From Eledone cirrhosa (lineage: Eukaryota): DNA of 64,000 nt. Position numbers and translations under genes: made by a program. Location: NCBI GenBank assembly GCA_964016885.1, contig OZ024750.1:6572001-6636000 (forward strand). Reading direction: 5' to 3'. Positions 8,607-34,670 of the stretch are shown here, piece by piece. The notes under the pieces are model-generated. The model was not told where the DNA came from. It did not search any database and was given only the letters and a program-made list of their open reading frames with translations. Position 1 is the stretch's first letter. Each line of letters starts with the position of its first letter.

Positions 8607-8715
8607 TGACTTTATAATCGTCATAGTTCTAATTGTGTATATTTCTAAAGCGATATAAAAGTTATATATATATAATATGATTTCTATGTTCAATATATAA
8701 TATATACAATTTATA

Positions 8716-8820
8716 TTATGTTATATATATATATAAAATATATATATATATATAAAATATATATATATATATAAAATATATAAAATATATATATATATAT
8801 AAAAAATATATAAAATATAT

Positions 8821-8918
<98 letters not shown>

Positions 8919-8924
8919 ATATAT

Positions 8925-9003
<79 letters not shown>

Positions 9004-9437
9004 TATATATATATAAAATATATATATATATATATAAAATATATATATATATATATAAAATATATATATATAAAATATATATATATATATAAAATATATA
9101 TATATATATAAAATATATATATATATATATAAAATATATATATATATATATATAAAATATATATATATATATAATATATAAAATATATATATATAAAATA
9201 TATATATTTTATATATATATATATATAATATATATATATATATAATATATAATATATAATATATATATATAAAAAATATATATATATATTTAAAATATAT
9301 ATATATATTTAAAATATATATATATATATAATATATATATATATATAATATATAATATATATATATATATATAAAAAATATATATATATATATATAAAAT
9401 ATATAAAATATATATACATAAAAAATATATATATATT

Positions 9438-9504
<67 letters not shown>

Positions 9505-9505
9505 T
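8716..9505. repeat. ~790-bp (TA)n tract punctuated by short A runs
   Basis: Direct reading; abuts the left end of the HHR array. Confidence 0.95.
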
Positions 9506-11626
9506 AAAAACAAATAACGAAACGAAATTAAATTTCGTTTCGTTTGTAACTCACTTTTGTATGACTGACGCTCAAACAATTAAGTCAAAGATGTACATCC
9601 ATATATGTATACTGAAATACTAGTATGTATATGAATACACAAACGTATACATATGTAGATGTACCAAGTTTTTTTTTTCACTGATCACTTTACTGTGAGT
9701 GGCCAGCTATTCTGTATGTAAACACACAGACAAACCGGTTTTTAGAGTCATACTGGTTTTTGAGGAAACACCTTTCCTCTATTCTCCAGAAAGCCAGACA
9801 AGGAATATTGAACTAGTTTCGTTGTTGTTACAACTCATCAGCAATATTTACCTATCTTCCGGCCTCTCTAGAGAATCGTAAAAGCACATATCGCTATATG
9901 CTTTTTCTATGAAAATTAGTAGTGGGCAGACCAACTTGCATAGAGTGTGAGTAAGTACCGGTTCAACGGAGACGATAAAAACAAATAACGAAACGAAATT
10001 AAATTTCGTTTCGTTTGTAACTCACTTTTGTATGACTGACGCTCAAACAATTAAGTCAAAGATGTACATCCATATATGTATACTGAAATACTAGTATGTA
10101 TATGAATACACAAACGTATACATATGTAGATGTACCAAGTTTTTTTTCACTGATCACTTTACTGTGAGTGGCCAGCTATTCTGTATGTAAACACACAGAC
10201 AAACCGGTTTTTAGAGTCATACTGGTTTTTGAGGAAACACCTTTCCTCTATTCTCCAGAAAGCCAGACAAGGAATATTGAACTAGTTTCGTTGTTGTTAC
10301 AACTCATCAGCAATATTTACCTATCTTCCGGCCTCTCTAGAGAATCGTAAAAGCACATATCGCTATATGCTTTTTCTATGAAAATTAGTAGTGGGCAGAC
10401 CAACTTGCATAGAGTGTGAGTAAGTACCGGTTCAACGGAGACGATAAAAACAAATAACGAAACGAAATTAAATTTCGTTTCGTTTGTAACTCACTTTTGT
10501 ATGACTGACGCTCAAACAATTAAGTCAAAGATGTACATCCATATATGTATACTGAAATACTAGTATGTATATGAATACACAAACGTATACATATGTAGAT
10601 GTACCAAGTTTTTTTTTTCACTGATCACTTTACTGTGAGTGGCCAGCTATTCTGTATGTAAACACACAGACAAACCGGTTTTTAGAGTCATACTGGTTTT
10701 TGAGGAAACACCTTTCCTCTATTCTCCAGAAAGCCAGACAAGGAATATTGAACTAGTTTCGTTGTTGTTACAACTCATCAGCAATATTTACCTATCTTCC
10801 GGCCTCTCTAGAGAATCGTAAAAGCACATATCGCTATATGCTTTTTCTATGAAAATTAGTAGTGGGCAGACCAACTTGCATAGAGTGTGAGTAAGTACCG
10901 GTTCAACGGAGACGATAAAAACAAATAACGAAACGAAATTAAATTTCGTTTCGTTTGTAACTCACTTTTGTATGACTGACGCTCAAACAATTAAGTCAAA
11001 GATGTACATCCATATATGTATACTGAAATACTAGTATGTATATGAATACACAAACGTATACATATGTAGATGCACCAAGTTTTTTTCACTGATCACTTTA
11101 CTGTGAGTGGCCAGCTATTCTGTATGTAAACACACAGACAAACCGGTTTTTAGAGTCATACTGGTTTTTGAGGAAACACCTTTCCTCTATTCTCCAGAAA
11201 GCCAGACAAGGAATATTGAACTAGTTTCGTTGTTGTTACAACTCATCAGCAATATTTACCTATCTTCTGGCCTCTCTAGAGAATCGTAAAAGCACATATC
11301 GCTATATGCTTTTTCTATGAAAATTAGTAGTGGGCAGACCAACTTGCATAGAGTGTGAGTAAGTACCGGTTCAACGGAGACGATAAAAACAAATAACGAA
11401 ACGAAATTAAATTTCGTTTCGTTTGTAACTCACTTTTGTATGACTGACGCTCAAACAATTAAGTCAAAGATGTACATCCATATATGTATACTGAAATACT
11501 AGTATGTATATGAATACACAAACGTATACATATGTAGATGTACCAAGTTTTTTTTCACTGATCACTTTACTGTGAGTGGCCAGCTATTCTGTATGTAAAC
11601 ACACAGACAAACCGGTTTTTAGAGTC
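9503..11626 (-). mobile_element. Retrozyme-like tandem array, left arm (~4.5 x ~469-bp HHR-containing units)
   Basis: Unit periodicity is 469/471/468 bp (from the identical 60-aa pseudo-ORF positions). HHRs on the minus strand at 9804-9848, 10273-10317, 10744-10788, 11212-11256. Confidence 0.9.
9804..9848 (-). ncRNA. Canonical minimal type-I hammerhead ribozyme (first of 8 identical copies)
   Basis: AATATTG-CTGATGA-GTTGT AACA ACAAC-GAAA-CTAG-TT-CAATATT: 7-bp stem I, intact core, 5-bp stem II, palindromic stem III ACTAGT, GUU cleavage triplet. Confidence 0.92.
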
Positions 11627-13439
11627 TTTTATCGTCTCCGTTGAACCGGTACTTACTCACACTCTATGCAAGTTGGTCTGCCCACTACTAATTTTCATAG
11701 AAAAAGCATATAGCGATATGTGCTTTTACGATTCTCTAGAGAGGCCGGAAGATAGGTAAATATTGCTGATGAGTTGTAACAACAACGAAACTAGTTCAAT
11801 ATTCCTTGTCTGGCTTTCTGGAGAATAGAGGAAAGGTGTTTCCTCAAAAACCAGTATGACTCTAAAAACCGGTTTGTCTGTGTGTTTACATACAGAATAG
11901 CTGGCCACTCACAGTAAAGTGATCAGTGAAAAAAAACTTGGTACATCTACATATGTATACGTTTGTGTATTCATATACATACTAGTATTTCAGTATACAT
12001 ATATGGATGTACATCTTTGACTTAATTGTTTGAGCGTCAGTCATACAAAAGTGAGTTACAAACGAAACGAAATTTAATTTCGTTTCGTTATTTGTTTTTA
12101 TCGTCTCCGTTGAACCGGTACTTACTCACACTCTATGCAAGTTGGTCTGCCCACTACTAATTTTCATAGAAAAAGCATATAGCGATATGTGCTTTTACGA
12201 TTCTCTAGAGAGGCCGGAAGATAGGTAAATATTGCTGATGAGTTGTAACAACAACGAAACTAGTTCAATATTCCTTGTCTGGCTTTCTGGAGAATAGAGG
12301 AAAGGTGTTTCCTCAAAAACCAGTATGACTCTAAAAACCGGTTTGTCTGTGTGTTTACATACAGAATAGCTGGCCACTCACAGTAAAGTGATCAGTGAAA
12401 AAAACTTGGTACATCTACATATGTATACGTTTGTGTATTCATATACATACTAGTATTTCAGTATACATATATGGATGTACATCTTTGACTTAATTGTTTG
12501 AGCGTCAGTCATACAAAAGTGAGTTACAAACGAAACGAAATTTAATTTCGTTTCGTTATTTGTTTTTATCGTCTCCGTTGAACCGGTACTTACTCACACT
12601 CTATGCAAGTTGGTCTGCCCACTACTAATTTTCATAGAAAAAGCATATAGCGATATGTGCTTTTACGATTCTCTAGAGAGGCCGGAAGATAGGTAAATAT
12701 TGCTGATGAGTTGTAACAACAACGAAACTAGTTCAATATTCCTTGTCTGGCTTTCTGGAGAATAGAGGAAAGGTGTTTCCTCAAAAACCAGTATGACTCT
12801 AAAAACCGGTTTGTCTGTGTGTTTACATACAGAATAGCTGGCCACTCACAGTAAAGTGATCAGTGAGAAAAAAAAACTTGGTACATCTACATATGTATAC
12901 GTTTGTGTATTCATATACATACTAGTATTTCAGTATACATATATGGATGTACATCTTTGACTTAATTGTTTGAGCGTCAGTCATACAAAAGTGAGTTACA
13001 AACGAAACGAAATTTAATTTCGTTTCGTTATTTGTTTTTATCGTCTCCGTTGAACCGGTACTTACTCACACTCTATGCAAGTTGGTCTGCCCACTACTAA
13101 TTTTCATAGAAAAAGCATATAGCGATATGTGCTTTTACGATTCTCTAGAGAGGCCGGAAGATAGGTAAATATTGCTGATGAGTTGTAACAACAACGAAAC
13201 TAGTTCAATATTCCTTGTCTGGCTTTCTGGAGAATAGAGGAAAGGTGTTTCCTCAAAAACCAGTATGACTCTAAAAACCGGTTTGTCTGTGTGTTTACAT
13301 ACAGAATAGCTGGCCACTCACAGTAAAGTGATCAGTGAAAAAAAACTTGGTACATCTACATATGTATACGTTTGTGTATTCATATACATACTAGTATTTC
13401 AGTATACATATATGGATGTACATCTTTGACTTAATTGTT
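11627..13439 (+). mobile_element. Retrozyme-like tandem array, right (inverted) arm (~3.9 units)
   Basis: Reverse complement of the left-arm unit. HHRs on + at 11759-11803, 12228-12272, 12696-12740, 13168-13212. Ends at ttaattgtt followed by ataaaatatat. Confidence 0.9.
11759..11803 (+). ncRNA. Canonical minimal type-I hammerhead ribozyme (first right-arm copy)
   Basis: aatattg ctgatga gttgt aaca acaac gaaa ctag tt caatatt, read directly on +. Confidence 0.92.
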
Positions 13440-13818
13440 ATAAAATATATATTTTCACCAAAACTAAAATATCGTATATAACAGTTGTTATTCATCCATA
13501 CTAAAACTGCATTAACAGCCGCCCCCTTCCTTGCTTTTGTGTGTTTTATATACATGATACTGAAGACATGAAAATATCATGCATCTGAATAGGTGACTAT
13601 ATCACCTTAATAAGTGGATGTGTGATACATTTTCTACCCGTTTTTGTTTTCTATTTTTTTTTCTTACCAATAAATATCGATGTTTAATGATATATCGATA
13701 TATATACGAATATTTTTACTTATTTATTGTCACGTTGCCTCCCTTTGATCGTTGAGCTAATCGATAGTGGGGATTCAGGGTAACGATTCAAGAAATTTCT
13801 AATATACATAATCATATG

Positions 13819-17344: not shown

Positions 17345-18068
17345 TATACATCTAACTATACATCTAGCTATACATCTGGCTATACATCTGGCTATACATT
17401 TGGCGATACATCTAGCTATACATCTGGCTATACATCTGGCTATATATCTAGCTATATATCTAGCTATATATCTAGCTATACATCTAGCTATACATCTGGC
17501 TTTATATCTAGCTATACATCTAGCTATACATCTGGCTATACATCTAACTATACATCTGGCTATACATCTGGCTATACATCTAGCTATATATCTAGCTATA
17601 CATCTAGCTATACATCTAGCTATACATCTAGCAATACATCTAGCTATACATCTAGCTATACATCTGGCTATACATCTAGCTATACATCTAGCTATACATC
17701 TAGCTATACATCTGGCTATACATCTAGCTATACATCTAGCAATACATCTAGCTATACATCTAGCTATACATCTAGCTATACATCTAGCTATACATCTGGC
17801 TATACATCTAGCTATACATCTAGCTATACATCTAGCTATACATCTGGCTATACATCTAGCTATACATCTAGCTATACATCTAGCTATACATCTAGCTATA
17901 CATCTAGCTATACATCTAGCTATACATCTAGCTATACATCTAGCTATACATCTAGCTATACATCTGGCTATACATCTGGCTATACATCTGGCTATACATC
18001 TGGCTATACATCTAGCTATACATCTAGCAATACATCTAGCTATACATCTGGCTATACATCTAGCTATA
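17345..18068. repeat. 12-bp minisatellite (ACATCTRGCTAT)n, ~60 copies
   Basis: Direct tandem reading; produces the spurious SSYT/HLAI ORFs. Confidence 0.95.
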
Positions 18069-32759: not shown

Positions 32760-34555
32760 TGAAGACTTCTGGTGTCATTGGCCCCAGGATCACCTCCCTA
32801 CTCACCACCATCGGCACCGAGTTGGCTACCCACAGTAGCGGAGACTTCTGGTGTCCTTGGCCCCAGGATCACCTCCCTACTCACCACCATCGGCACCGAG
32901 TTGGCTACCCACAGTAGCGGAGACTTCTGGTGTCCTTGGCCCCAGGATCACCTCCCTACTCACCACCATCGGCACTGAGTTGGCTACCCACAGTAGCGGA
33001 GACTTCTGGTGTCCTTGGCCCCAGGATCAACTCCCTACTCACCACCATCGGCACCGAGTTGGCTGCCCACAGTAGCGGAGACTTCTGGTGTCCTTGGCCC
33101 TAGGACCACCTCCCTGCTCACCACCATCGGCACCGAGTTGGCTACCCACAGTAGCGGAGACTTCTGGTGTCCTTGGCCCCAGGATCACCTCCCTGCTTAC
33201 CACCATCGGCACCGAGTTGGCTACCCACAGTAGCGGAGACTTCTGGTGTCATTGGCCCTAGGACCACCTCCCTGCTCACCACCATCGGCACCGAGTTGGC
33301 TACCCACAGTAGCGGAGACTTCTGGTGTCATTGGCCCTAGGACCACCTCCCTACTCACCACCATCGGCACCGAGTTGGCTACCCACAGTAGCGGAGACTT
33401 CTGGTGTCCTTGGCCCTAGGACCACCTTCCTGCTCACCACCATCGGCACCGAGTTGGCTACCCACAGTAGCGAAGACTTCTGGTGTCATTGGCCCTAGGA
33501 CCACCTCCCTACTCACCACCATCGGCACCGAGTTGGCTACCCACAGTAGCGGAGACTTCTGGTGTCCTTGGCCCTAGGACCACCTCCCTGCTCACCACCA
33601 TCGGCACCGAGTTGGCTACCCACAGTAGCGGAGACTTCTGGTGTCATTGGCCCTAGGACCACCTCCCTACTCACCACCATCGGCACCGAGTTGGCTACCC
33701 ACAGTAGCGGAGACTTCTGGTGTCCTTGGCCCTAGGACCACCTCCCTGCTCACCACCATCGGCACCGAGTTGGCTACCCACAGTAGCGAAGACTTCTGGT
33801 GTCATTGGCCCTAGGACCACCTCCCTACTCACCACCATCGGCACCGAGTTGGCTACCCACAGTAGCGGAGACTTCTGGTGTCCTTGGCCCTAGGACCACC
33901 TCCCTACTCACCACCATTGGCACCGAGTTGGCTACCCACAGTAGCGGAGACTTCTGGTGTCCTTGGCCCTAGGACCACCTCCCTACTCACCACCATTGGC
34001 ACCGAGTTGGCTACCCACAGTAGCGGAGACTTCTGGTGTCATTGGCCCTAGGACCACCTCCCTACTCACCACCATCGGCACCGAGTTGGCTACCCACAGT
34101 AGCGGAGACTTCTGGTGTCCTTGGCCCTAGGACCACCTCCCTACTCACCACCATCGGCACCGAGTTGGCTACCCACAGTAGCGAAGACTTCTGGTGTCAT
34201 TGGCCCTAGGACCACCTCCCTACTCACCACCATCGGCACCGAGTTGGCTACCCACAGTAGCGGAGACTTCTGGTGTCCTTGGCCCTAGGACCACCTCCCT
34301 ACTCACCACCATTGGCACCGAGTTGGCTACCCACAGTAGCGGAGACTTCTGGTGTCCTTGGCCCTAGGACCACCTCCCTACTCACCACCATTGGCACCGA
34401 GTTGGCTACCCACAGTAGCGGAGACTTCTGGTGTCATTGGCCCTAGGACCACCTCCCTACTCACCACCATCGGCACCGAGTTGGCTACCCACAGTAGCGG
34501 AGACTTCTGGTGTCCTTGGCCCTAGGACCACCTCCCTACTCACCACCATCGGCGC
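32760..34555 (+). repeat. 79-bp satellite (~23 units) derived from CRE endonuclease-coding DNA
   Basis: Unit ggagacttctggtgtccttggccctaggaccacctccctactcaccaccatcggcaccgagttggctacccacagtagc; starts every 79 bp from 32761 to 34499. Confidence 0.95.
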
Positions 34556-34670
34556 AGAGTTGGTTACATGTGAGCCTCGCGAGCTGGAATGGCTCTTCCA
34601 GAGCGTCTCCCTGACCATCCACCAGGGAAACGCCTTCTCTATTCTGTCCGCCGGGGCCACGATGGGGTCA
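34499..34670 (+). mobile_element. CRE-clade retrotransposon 3' remnant continuing from the last satellite unit
   Basis: ETSGVLGPRTTSLLTTIGAELVTCEPRELEWLFQSVSLTIHQGNAFSILSAG; homologous to 15762-16012. Confidence 0.8.

Follow-up and report, generated by a model that had tools for sequence, protein, structure and literature searches.

The described systems closest to the element that we analyze here include metazoan retrozymes that lack long terminal repeats (non-LTR retrozymes) and the Penelope-like elements (PLEs). The element is an inverted double tandem array of hammerhead-ribozyme units of about 469 nt, located in a 64,000-nt stretch of the Eledone cirrhosa genome (assembly GCA_964016885.1, contig OZ024750.1, forward-strand positions 6,572,001 to 6,636,000), which we call the window. 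For retrozymes, the production of multimeric cDNA from circular RNAs has been proposed, with PLEs named as candidates (PMC7229834, PMC7761336); later work added co-occurrence and similarity to the pseudo-LTRs (pLTRs) of PLEs and left the mechanism open (10.64898/2026.07.22.740005). PLE insertions, for their part, often carry an inverted, 5'-truncated copy and a 30–40-bp tail at one end only (PMC8557442, PMC3846280). The purified PLE protein PAc cleaves AT-rich DNA on both strands and extends each of them, initiating at two positions inside the RNA that delimit the tail, and it is predicted to form a dimer (PMC11167929).

The array touches on two questions left open in the papers cited. One concerns the enzyme that moves retrozymes in animals and the possible role of circles as its template (PMC7229834, 10.64898/2026.07.22.740005); the other is how the tandem and inverted structures of PLEs, tailed at a single end, come about (PMC8557442, PMC11167929). 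We find that the window array is a real, young retrozyme insertion. An earlier note on this DNA, made from the sequence alone, had proposed a retrozyme mobilized in trans by a PLE, and that proposal is now well supported by genomic footprints: dispersed copies at many phases of the unit, two fixed ends, 12–13-bp duplications, a (TA)n target, and a layout that recurs in Neptune-type PLEs of this genome. It is very likely, in our judgment, that the retrozyme was moved by a PLE with two-sided priming. In the fuller reading, which we consider probable, a reverse transcriptase (RT)/GIY-YIG PLE, likely of the Neptune type, acted in trans and, recently and in a single event, inserted a non-LTR retrozyme that is itself non-autonomous. 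The class of element is known; the new content is a counted rule for the two ends of each insertion, together with haplotypes that the two arms share.

Insertion ends

Tandem Repeats Finder (TRF) detects two tandem arrays on opposite strands, with 4.5 and 3.9 copies and 99% matches each, and the inverted double array of a ~469-bp unit described in the earlier note is thereby borne out. The ribozyme-sense strands of both arms head away from the junction. Unit comparison also agrees with the note that units differ by one tract and two substitutions: their length is 468–472 nt, and the variation consists of an A/T tract of 7–11 nt, one copy of which has an inserted G, and the two substitutions. 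We number unit phases from the predicted hammerhead cut, so that window position 11797 is phase 1. On this scale the arms join bluntly at unequal phases, 62 and 300, and the layout is not palindromic as the note had it. Nor is the array unusual, as had been thought: the inverted form is the normal insertion form of this family, and the unit length lies inside the reported retrozyme family range of 51–972 bp (10.64898/2026.07.22.740005).

The outer ends of arms are fixed at one of two sites, A (phase 226–235, mostly 231–235) or B (300–305), about 72 nt apart. When the genome was searched at the DNA level, the best 29 scored of 344 candidates contained 279 matches; these best-scoring candidates are our 29 young loci. 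Twenty-two of them are two-armed and divergent and seven are single-armed. Wherever both ends of a two-armed locus are resolved, which is the case for 21, an A end is paired with a B end; in the 22nd, one arm runs into an N gap of the assembly. The single arms end at A in five cases and at B in two. Because the young loci were the best search candidates, we added a position-ordered sample. Among 25 loci fetched from C1 0–31 Mb, 16 were clean two-armed insertions, all A/B, and two were unresolved or atypical; the rule therefore also holds in older subfamilies, at 84–98% identity. Several seemingly single arms have a second arm of only 8–20 nt. Over C1 0–72 Mb, a set that overlaps the previous one, the 46 divergent end pairs within 20 kb comprised 44 A/B, 2 A/A, and 0 B/B (binomial p 1.5e-11), and the median insert was 2.5 units. 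One of the A/A pairs is genuine and the other is a compound of two joined insertions. In a sister retrozyme family (30 loci of 3 kb), the end pairs were A/B in 4/4 cases, at homologous sites. At L171 (C1:67.84 Mb), one inverted insertion meets another, tail to tail, at the hairpin that adjoins site B.

The inner ends behave differently from the fixed outer ones, being uniform across the unit (52 arms, Kolmogorov-Smirnov p 0.57). The lengths of paired arms are uncorrelated (20 loci, rho 0.12) and range in young loci from about 10 nt to 13.5 units. Of 22 arm junctions, 12 have 1–4 nt of microhomology, 2 are blunt, and 8 contain inserts of 1–30 nt, the longer of which resemble pieces of the unit. 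Contigs from short-read run X1, which may derive from the same individual, switch strand at joints of 11 other phase pairs and have loose, TA-rich ends at site A (9578) and at site B (9975, 12101); the window's own junction is not among the X1 pieces listed.

Duplications of 12–13 bp flanking the insertion are clear at 5/29 loci, one of them in non-repeat DNA, and most others are hidden in pure TA. The 13-bp duplication around the window array, a feature absent from the earlier note, is weak alone, as the same 13-mer occurs 18 times in the adjoining 844-bp TA tract; it shares its register with the 12–13-bp duplications at four other loci. At C2:386.4 Mb, an insertion has a 12-bp duplication in non-repeat AT-rich DNA. 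Two other loci, C2:26.71 Mb (L063) and C1:58.7–59.3 kb (L110), have ends in (ATC)n rather than (TA)n.

Sites A and B both lie about 12–17 nt 3' of a hairpin and have a short T-rich motif in common. The stretch from A to B, about 72 nt, is the equivalent of the PLE "tail." Site B was considered as an RNA polymerase III terminator, given its T5 run; this is not favored, as arms pass through many B sites. The unit as a whole has a GC content of about 0.35 and a predicted fold of -151.2 kcal/mol (z -8.67), with 0/100 shuffles equally stable. Matches to the mir-297 and mir-3149 families fall far under their thresholds and stem from the TA-rich hairpin.

Penelope-like elements in the genome

The window array contains no long open reading frame (ORF) and no match to a PLE endonuclease, and neither the array nor the window holds an RT plus GIY-YIG ORF of an autonomous PLE. 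Elsewhere, the genome has 10,595 GIY-YIG candidates. Twelve such loci, once extended, gave four Neptune-type PLE families (L098–L109), with an RT, a C-terminal GIY-YIG domain, and a CxxxxCxxC motif upstream, the upstream cysteine motif being one given for Neptune and Nematis (PMC8557442). One of these loci has an open RT plus GIY-YIG frame of 1025 aa (L100:3487–6561). PLE families A, B, and C encode RVT_1 with a C-terminal GIY-YIG; in each, the inverted copy has a short end and the direct copy a long one, both in (TA)n. Their tails measure 64 nt in family A, 38 nt in B, and 54 nt in C (one locus each), and one family C locus has a possible 14-bp duplication. The (TA)n target is thus common to the unit and the co-resident PLEs, and, given this inversion with short and long ends in (TA)n, the retrozyme bears the footprint of these enzymes. 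The last 15 nt of family C (L101/L102) match the antisense of the unit's stem I with an E value of 0.56, probably by chance.

Families A, B, and D carry a candidate hammerhead-like motif in their pLTRs in which the first core C is changed to U, with a palindromic stem III in some. At C1:4.76 Mb (L116) and at L092, retrozymes sit within, or next to, the 3'-terminal TA run of Neptune-type PLE copies, which fits a shared target.

The hammerhead ribozyme

Rfam identifies eight hammerheads in the array, four on the minus strand in the left arm and four on the plus strand in the right arm. The best-matching model, RF02275 (HH9; 37.7 bits, E 6.7e-7), does not reach its gathering score of 52; for RF00163, the model named in the earlier note, the score is hidden because overlapping clan matches were dropped. 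The predicted stem I has 6–7 bp followed by an internal loop and a distal helix, stem II has 5 bp, and stem III has 2 bp with a palindromic loop. A GUU triplet with a 2-bp stem III is expected to cut slowly. The stem layout is that of the canonical metazoan type-I form (PMC4209133). The note's "minimal type-I hammerhead" is therefore right as to type I and the palindromic, minimal stem III and wrong as to the minimal class: min-HHRs are defined by the absence of helix III, loop 3, and tertiary elements (PMC4209133), and here stem I is extended and a short helix III is present.

An alignment of 17 of the 40 distinct hammerhead variants from the fetched loci, picked to span both families, has changes on both sides in 7/17 base pairs, and its covariation score was reached by 0/500 shuffles. 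The catalytic core and stem III are invariant across the 17 variants, and 92% pairing was obtained for the alignment vs 32–49% for slid controls. We regard this covariation as supportive of the putative ribozyme, without the weight of a formal test. According to PMC4209133, a weak helix III hinders monomer cleavage and permits it in paired ribozymes, so that multimers are cut and monomer circles are not. ViennaRNA did not predict a clean double-hammerhead for the dimer of our unit, and dimer cleavage therefore rests on the literature. There, 8/9 Xenopus dimers showed no cleavage (10.64898/2026.07.22.740005); thus, self-cleavage of the unit transcript cannot be assumed.

Template of the insertions and alternative explanations

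At three young loci, all units of the two arms are fixed for variants unseen elsewhere in the sample: the window (where one of the sites is also shared with C1:144.0 Mb), C1:144.0 Mb (two private sites), and C1:111.07 Mb (one). Each insertion therefore appears to derive from one template lineage. The 18 full units at C1:30.8 Mb are free of internal substitutions, the consensuses of the two arms are identical, and the nearest sampled locus differs at 4 sites. Junctions across the cut site are exact in 223/227 cases, and the inner ends of young loci do not pile up there. Given mobilization by a PLE with two-sided priming, we consider a circular template, mono- or oligomeric, the likely one, and the rolling-circle step of the earlier note is favored.

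Alternatively, the PLE could have primed from two sides on an uncut linear multimer of a homogenized master array, with the ribozyme and circles as side products. Exact cut-site junctions and uniform inner ends fit this scenario equally well, and so would the slow cutting expected of this hammerhead. Ribozyme mutants had no effect on PAc insertion in vitro (PMC11167929). In addition, 27/29 young loci share the same base at phase 167, as a master locus predicts; the minority variants of mosaic loci are common to both arms; and the tract lengths in the window run 8,7,10,8 in one arm vs 8,7,11,8 in the other. Yet when the two arms were tested for a common register on one heterogeneous multimer, none of 11 offsets gave more shared variants than shuffles (best p 0.13). 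Moreover, locus-specific haplotypes are fixed over 9–20 units with almost no singletons, arrays copied from linear RNA can only get shorter, and the ribozyme core is invariant with stems that covary across families. On balance, we consider a linear template rather unlikely. It is more improbable still that the PLE inserts arms of only 1–2 units and that long arrays grow in place by unequal exchange, like minisatellites; a local amplification route is discussed in 10.64898/2026.07.22.740005. The median insert size in the position-ordered sample would suit such growth, as would an alternating two-unit pattern in one young arm (C9:23.4 Mb) and the patterned variants shared within old arms of 30 and 14 units. 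However, arms of 8–13 units occur in the young subfamily, which has only 55 non-fixed substitutions in 107,524 bases over its 29 loci, and several of these arms have none, thus leaving little time for growth; in addition, the same private variant would have to be fixed separately in both inverted arms.

Two further explanations carry much less weight. In one of them, stem I keeps the two ends of a cleaved but unligated monomer side by side and the RT jumps precisely across the nick between them, so that tandem copies arise and no covalent circle is needed. The predicted fold does place both monomer ends together, a few arms start right at the cut site or a few bases from it (one with a short duplication there), and a bacterial precedent for tandem cDNA from a non-coding RNA has been reported (PMC12039810). 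Nevertheless, the exactness of the cut-site junctions and the lack of an inner-end pile-up at young loci speak against such jumps, and RtcB ligates retrozyme monomers efficiently in vitro (PMC7229834); we judge this explanation very improbable. The other holds that the inversion is a fold-back artefact, a cDNA snap-back, or the result of L1-type twin priming in which the inversion point is the second priming site. In L1 twin priming, both target ends prime cDNA, which yields divergent arms within one duplication; the RNA that L1 copies is linear, and priming takes place at its poly(A) end and at an internal site that varies. The right arm of the window starts at phase 300, close to the left arm's priming site at 305, and this closeness suggested twin priming of the L1 style on one linear RNA; it is not seen in the other 21 two-armed loci, on which this candidate was rejected. 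A fold-back should leave like ends (A/A or B/B) and mirror symmetry, whereas A/B ends and asymmetric junctions are found, and the strand-switch joints and TA-rich loose ends in the short reads also contradict it. The artefact that the earlier note had allowed for looks excluded, and we give this group of explanations next to no chance. A single satellite block, also considered there, looks excluded as well: a genome search recovered copies with other entry points, at many phases and dispersed genome-wide.

Several observations weigh against the reading that we prefer, a PLE-mediated insertion copied from a circle. With regard to the ends, the young loci are biased to long arrays, and 38/130 ends listed on C1 0–72 Mb are unpaired. 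With regard to the template, mosaicism occurs at some young loci, where non-adjacent units or both arms carry a minority variant (6/8 units at C4:287.7 Mb, 2/6 at C4:257.9 Mb, and 3 units at C4:335.1 Mb); a single monomer circle is therefore insufficient at these loci without later conversion. The two longest old arms, of 30 and 14 full units, carry shared non-fixed variants, which we take as a sign of later local turnover. The variants that we call private are so only within a sample of about 54 loci out of some 2,400, and a single haplotype dominates the young loci. For the latter reason, the partner arm is strictly closest in only 9/37 loci, although in 29 it is the closest or ties for that place. 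Between the outermost units at A and at B, 1 rare variant is shared and 52 are discordant, and there is thus no sign that both RTs start on one unit. A few older arms start at the cut site. As for the ribozyme, most hammerhead changes separate the two families, and related sequences can beat a covariation shuffle without structure; furthermore, uncut RNA was the main substrate of PAc in vitro, and the ribozyme was dispensable (PMC11167929). Finally, a helper PLE was not found: none of the 42 GIY-YIG loci compared (of 10,595), many with a flank of only 1.5 kb, matches the unit beyond an E value of 0.56, and the autonomous PLE sharing the unit ends that the earlier note had envisaged is not among them. 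The protein copies of PLE family B are about 97% identical and therefore older than the youngest retrozymes.

The two long old arms (30.5 units at L117–L118, C1:5.74 Mb, and 14.7 units at L122, C1:14.04 Mb) deserve mention in their own right: their shared variants are semi-periodic, as in a retrozyme arm becoming a higher-order minisatellite.

Family size and related families

The B end joined to TA has 2,391 matches in the genome (control 0), and hence there are at least 2,391 insertions. For the A end joined to TA, the forward strand has 1,261 matches; we use this count alone because reverse-strand counts are inflated by a variable gap. An 18-base motif followed by two degenerate positions has 10,093 exact matches (control 2), a figure that serves as a unit count only, since the motif also matches internal units. 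Subfamilies span the range from near-identical to 84% identity.

A search for other hammerheads with an identical stem III brought up no PLE and revealed the sister retrozyme family. The latter is collinear with the family studied here, with units of 424–538 nt and an expandable internal TA run (L140–L169, L092). Its 30,240 hammerhead-pattern matches (control 4) make it about three times as large, and the two related families together exceed 40,000 units. Further repeated hammerhead-like motifs, one pair of them 459 bp apart, were noted at L103, L106, L108, and L099:7698 and 8157 and may represent additional families. Contigs of 227–503 nt from runs X4, X5, and X6, labelled as three other organisms, match the unit at high identity, either as relatives or as carry-over.

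The features of the array are collected in Table 1. Two other tandem repeats were recorded in the window: a GC-rich 79-bp repeat at 32763–34567 (22.8 copies, 96% matches), in which the hammerhead pattern was not found, and a 12-bp repeat at 17345–18068 (60 copies, 93% matches).

Table 1. Coordinates of the array and its flanks in the window (TSD, target site duplication)
Feature	Position	Strand	Remarks
Left arm, 4.53 units	9504..11626	-	ribozyme sense leftwards; outer 3' end is site B, phase 305; inner end at phase 62
Right arm, 3.87 units	11627..13439	+	ribozyme sense rightwards; inner end at phase 300; outer 3' end is site A, phase 234
Inversion junction	11626..11627	.	blunt, 5' to 5' end, without mirror symmetry
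Left TSD copy, 13 bp	9494..9506	+	final 3 nt overlap the element; putative primer microhomology at site B
Right TSD copy, 13 bp	13439..13451	+	1 nt overlap with the element at site A
(TA)n microsatellite, insertion target	8663..9506	.	from tandem-repeat scan; like the target at most other loci
Reference 469-nt unit	11797..12265	+	predicted monomer or circle; phase 1 is the predicted hammerhead cut
Long TA-rich hairpin and site A	11941..12031	+	hairpin at phase about 145-218; site A 13-17 nt later (12027-12031)
13-bp hairpin and site B	12061..12101	+	hairpin 12061-12089; site B about 12 nt later (12101)
Type-I hammerhead, GUU triplet	11748..11819	+	predicted cut 11796/11797; extended stem I, 5-bp stem II, palindromic stem III
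Further right-arm hammerheads	12217-12288, 12685-12756, 13157-13228	+	Rfam
Left-arm hammerheads	9788-9859, 10257-10328, 10728-10799, 11196-11267	-	Rfam

Proposed mechanism

A genomic array would first be transcribed, and adjacent hammerheads, pairing via the palindromic stem III, would cut the RNA to 469-nt monomers. These would be ligated to circles, which, judging from the anatomy of the ribozyme and from known retrozymes, should persist because a lone ribozyme cuts poorly. A PLE enzyme, probably a dimer, may then nick both strands of a (TA)n tract 12–13 bp apart, which would leave two 3' overhangs. Each overhang would prime reverse transcription at its own internal site, A or B, with 0–3 nt of pairing, and the two RTs, each on its own, would copy over distances set at random and read through the ribozyme cut site, most likely round a circle. 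The two cDNA ends would finally be joined by 1–4-nt microhomology, bluntly, or with short inserts, to give the divergent arms. In an insertion with B at the left, the top strand of the left flank would end at the right edge of the duplication and be continued by the B arm, while the bottom strand of the right flank would end at the left edge and be continued by the A arm; it is from this geometry that we infer a staggered break with 12–13-nt 3' overhangs, both of which act as primers. We advance the complete scheme tentatively, at somewhat less than an even chance for all of its parts jointly: a dimeric PLE enzyme that cleaves the microsatellite on both strands and carries out two rolling-circle reverse transcriptions at the same time on a circle made by the ribozyme, each from its own dedicated start site. 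Such a mode of retrotransposition is absent from the literature that we searched.

The footprint ties the retrozyme to the PLE machinery and turns the "tail at one end" into a one-A-one-B rule. The family offers thousands of young, protein-free insertions with countable ends, and a 469-nt RNA with mapped start sites is a minimal substrate for testing rolling-circle, target-primed reverse transcription. If the scheme is true, two-sided priming would explain the inverted-copy-plus-one-tail structure of PLEs generally, and the two retrozyme families may parasitize the enzyme through RNA shape alone, without pLTR homology. If confirmed, an enzyme that writes circular RNA into both sides of a break would also be of interest to the gene-writing field.

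Comparison with known systems

The family resembles the metazoan non-LTR retrozymes (PMC7229834, 10.64898/2026.07.22.740005, PMC7761336) in its non-coding, low-GC tandem units that are a few hundred bp long, each with a type-I hammerhead, and in its dispersed arrays with duplications of more than 4 bp; a circular RNA has been proposed there as the template that PLEs copy into multimers. The window array and its relatives have the features used to recognize this class, that is, at least two consecutive complete hammerheads (8 in 8.4 units), dispersed copies, duplications of more than 4 bp, and a GC content below 45%. They do not conform to the plant LTR retrozyme, with type-III hammerheads in LTRs and a 4-bp duplication, since the hammerhead is of type I, the units are in tandem, and the duplication is 12–13 bp. 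In contrast to the metazoan retrozymes described, insertions here typically consist of two divergent arms with two fixed, paired 3' ends in a (TA)n target. Those retrozymes are backed by RNA evidence, whereas our unit is known from DNA alone. The published link between retrozymes and PLEs consists of co-occurrence and pLTR similarity; here it consists of the insertion footprint, with no pLTR homologue in the 42 loci.

In the present case, unlike in L1 twin priming, neither of the two sites varies, and the arms run over one and the same sequence many times. Chlamys elements such as MRC1 (PMC8557442, PMC9940879) are comparable as non-autonomous PLE parasites with multicopy head-to-tail insertions, but that clade is described as lacking canonical hammerheads and usually shares 3' sequence with its helper, for which no match was found among the 42 loci compared here. 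In the literature that we searched, no paper applies the term twin priming to PLEs. The word "inverted" is absent from the main text of PMC7229834 and occurs in that of 10.64898/2026.07.22.740005 only within a reference title. A full-text search covering neither subscription journals nor supplements returned no two-armed retrozyme insertions with paired fixed ends and no cephalopod retrozymes.

The endonuclease-positive PLEs, Neptune and Nematis (PMC8557442, PMC3846280) and PAc (PMC11167929), share with the family an inverted arm, a choice between two 3' ends of which only one has the tail, an AT-rich or microsatellite target, duplications of about 8–13 bp, and a hammerhead upstream of the initiation sites. 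They differ from it in that here there is no ORF, the tail is about 72 nt vs the 30–40 nt reported, each arm consists of multiple copies of the entire element, and the hammerhead is of the canonical type rather than minimal. Retrozymes on the one hand and PLE tails and inversions on the other are each known, and we found no paper that joins them in this manner. As far as the sequence can tell, the family has the features of a non-LTR retrozyme, and its insertion would work like that of a PLE.

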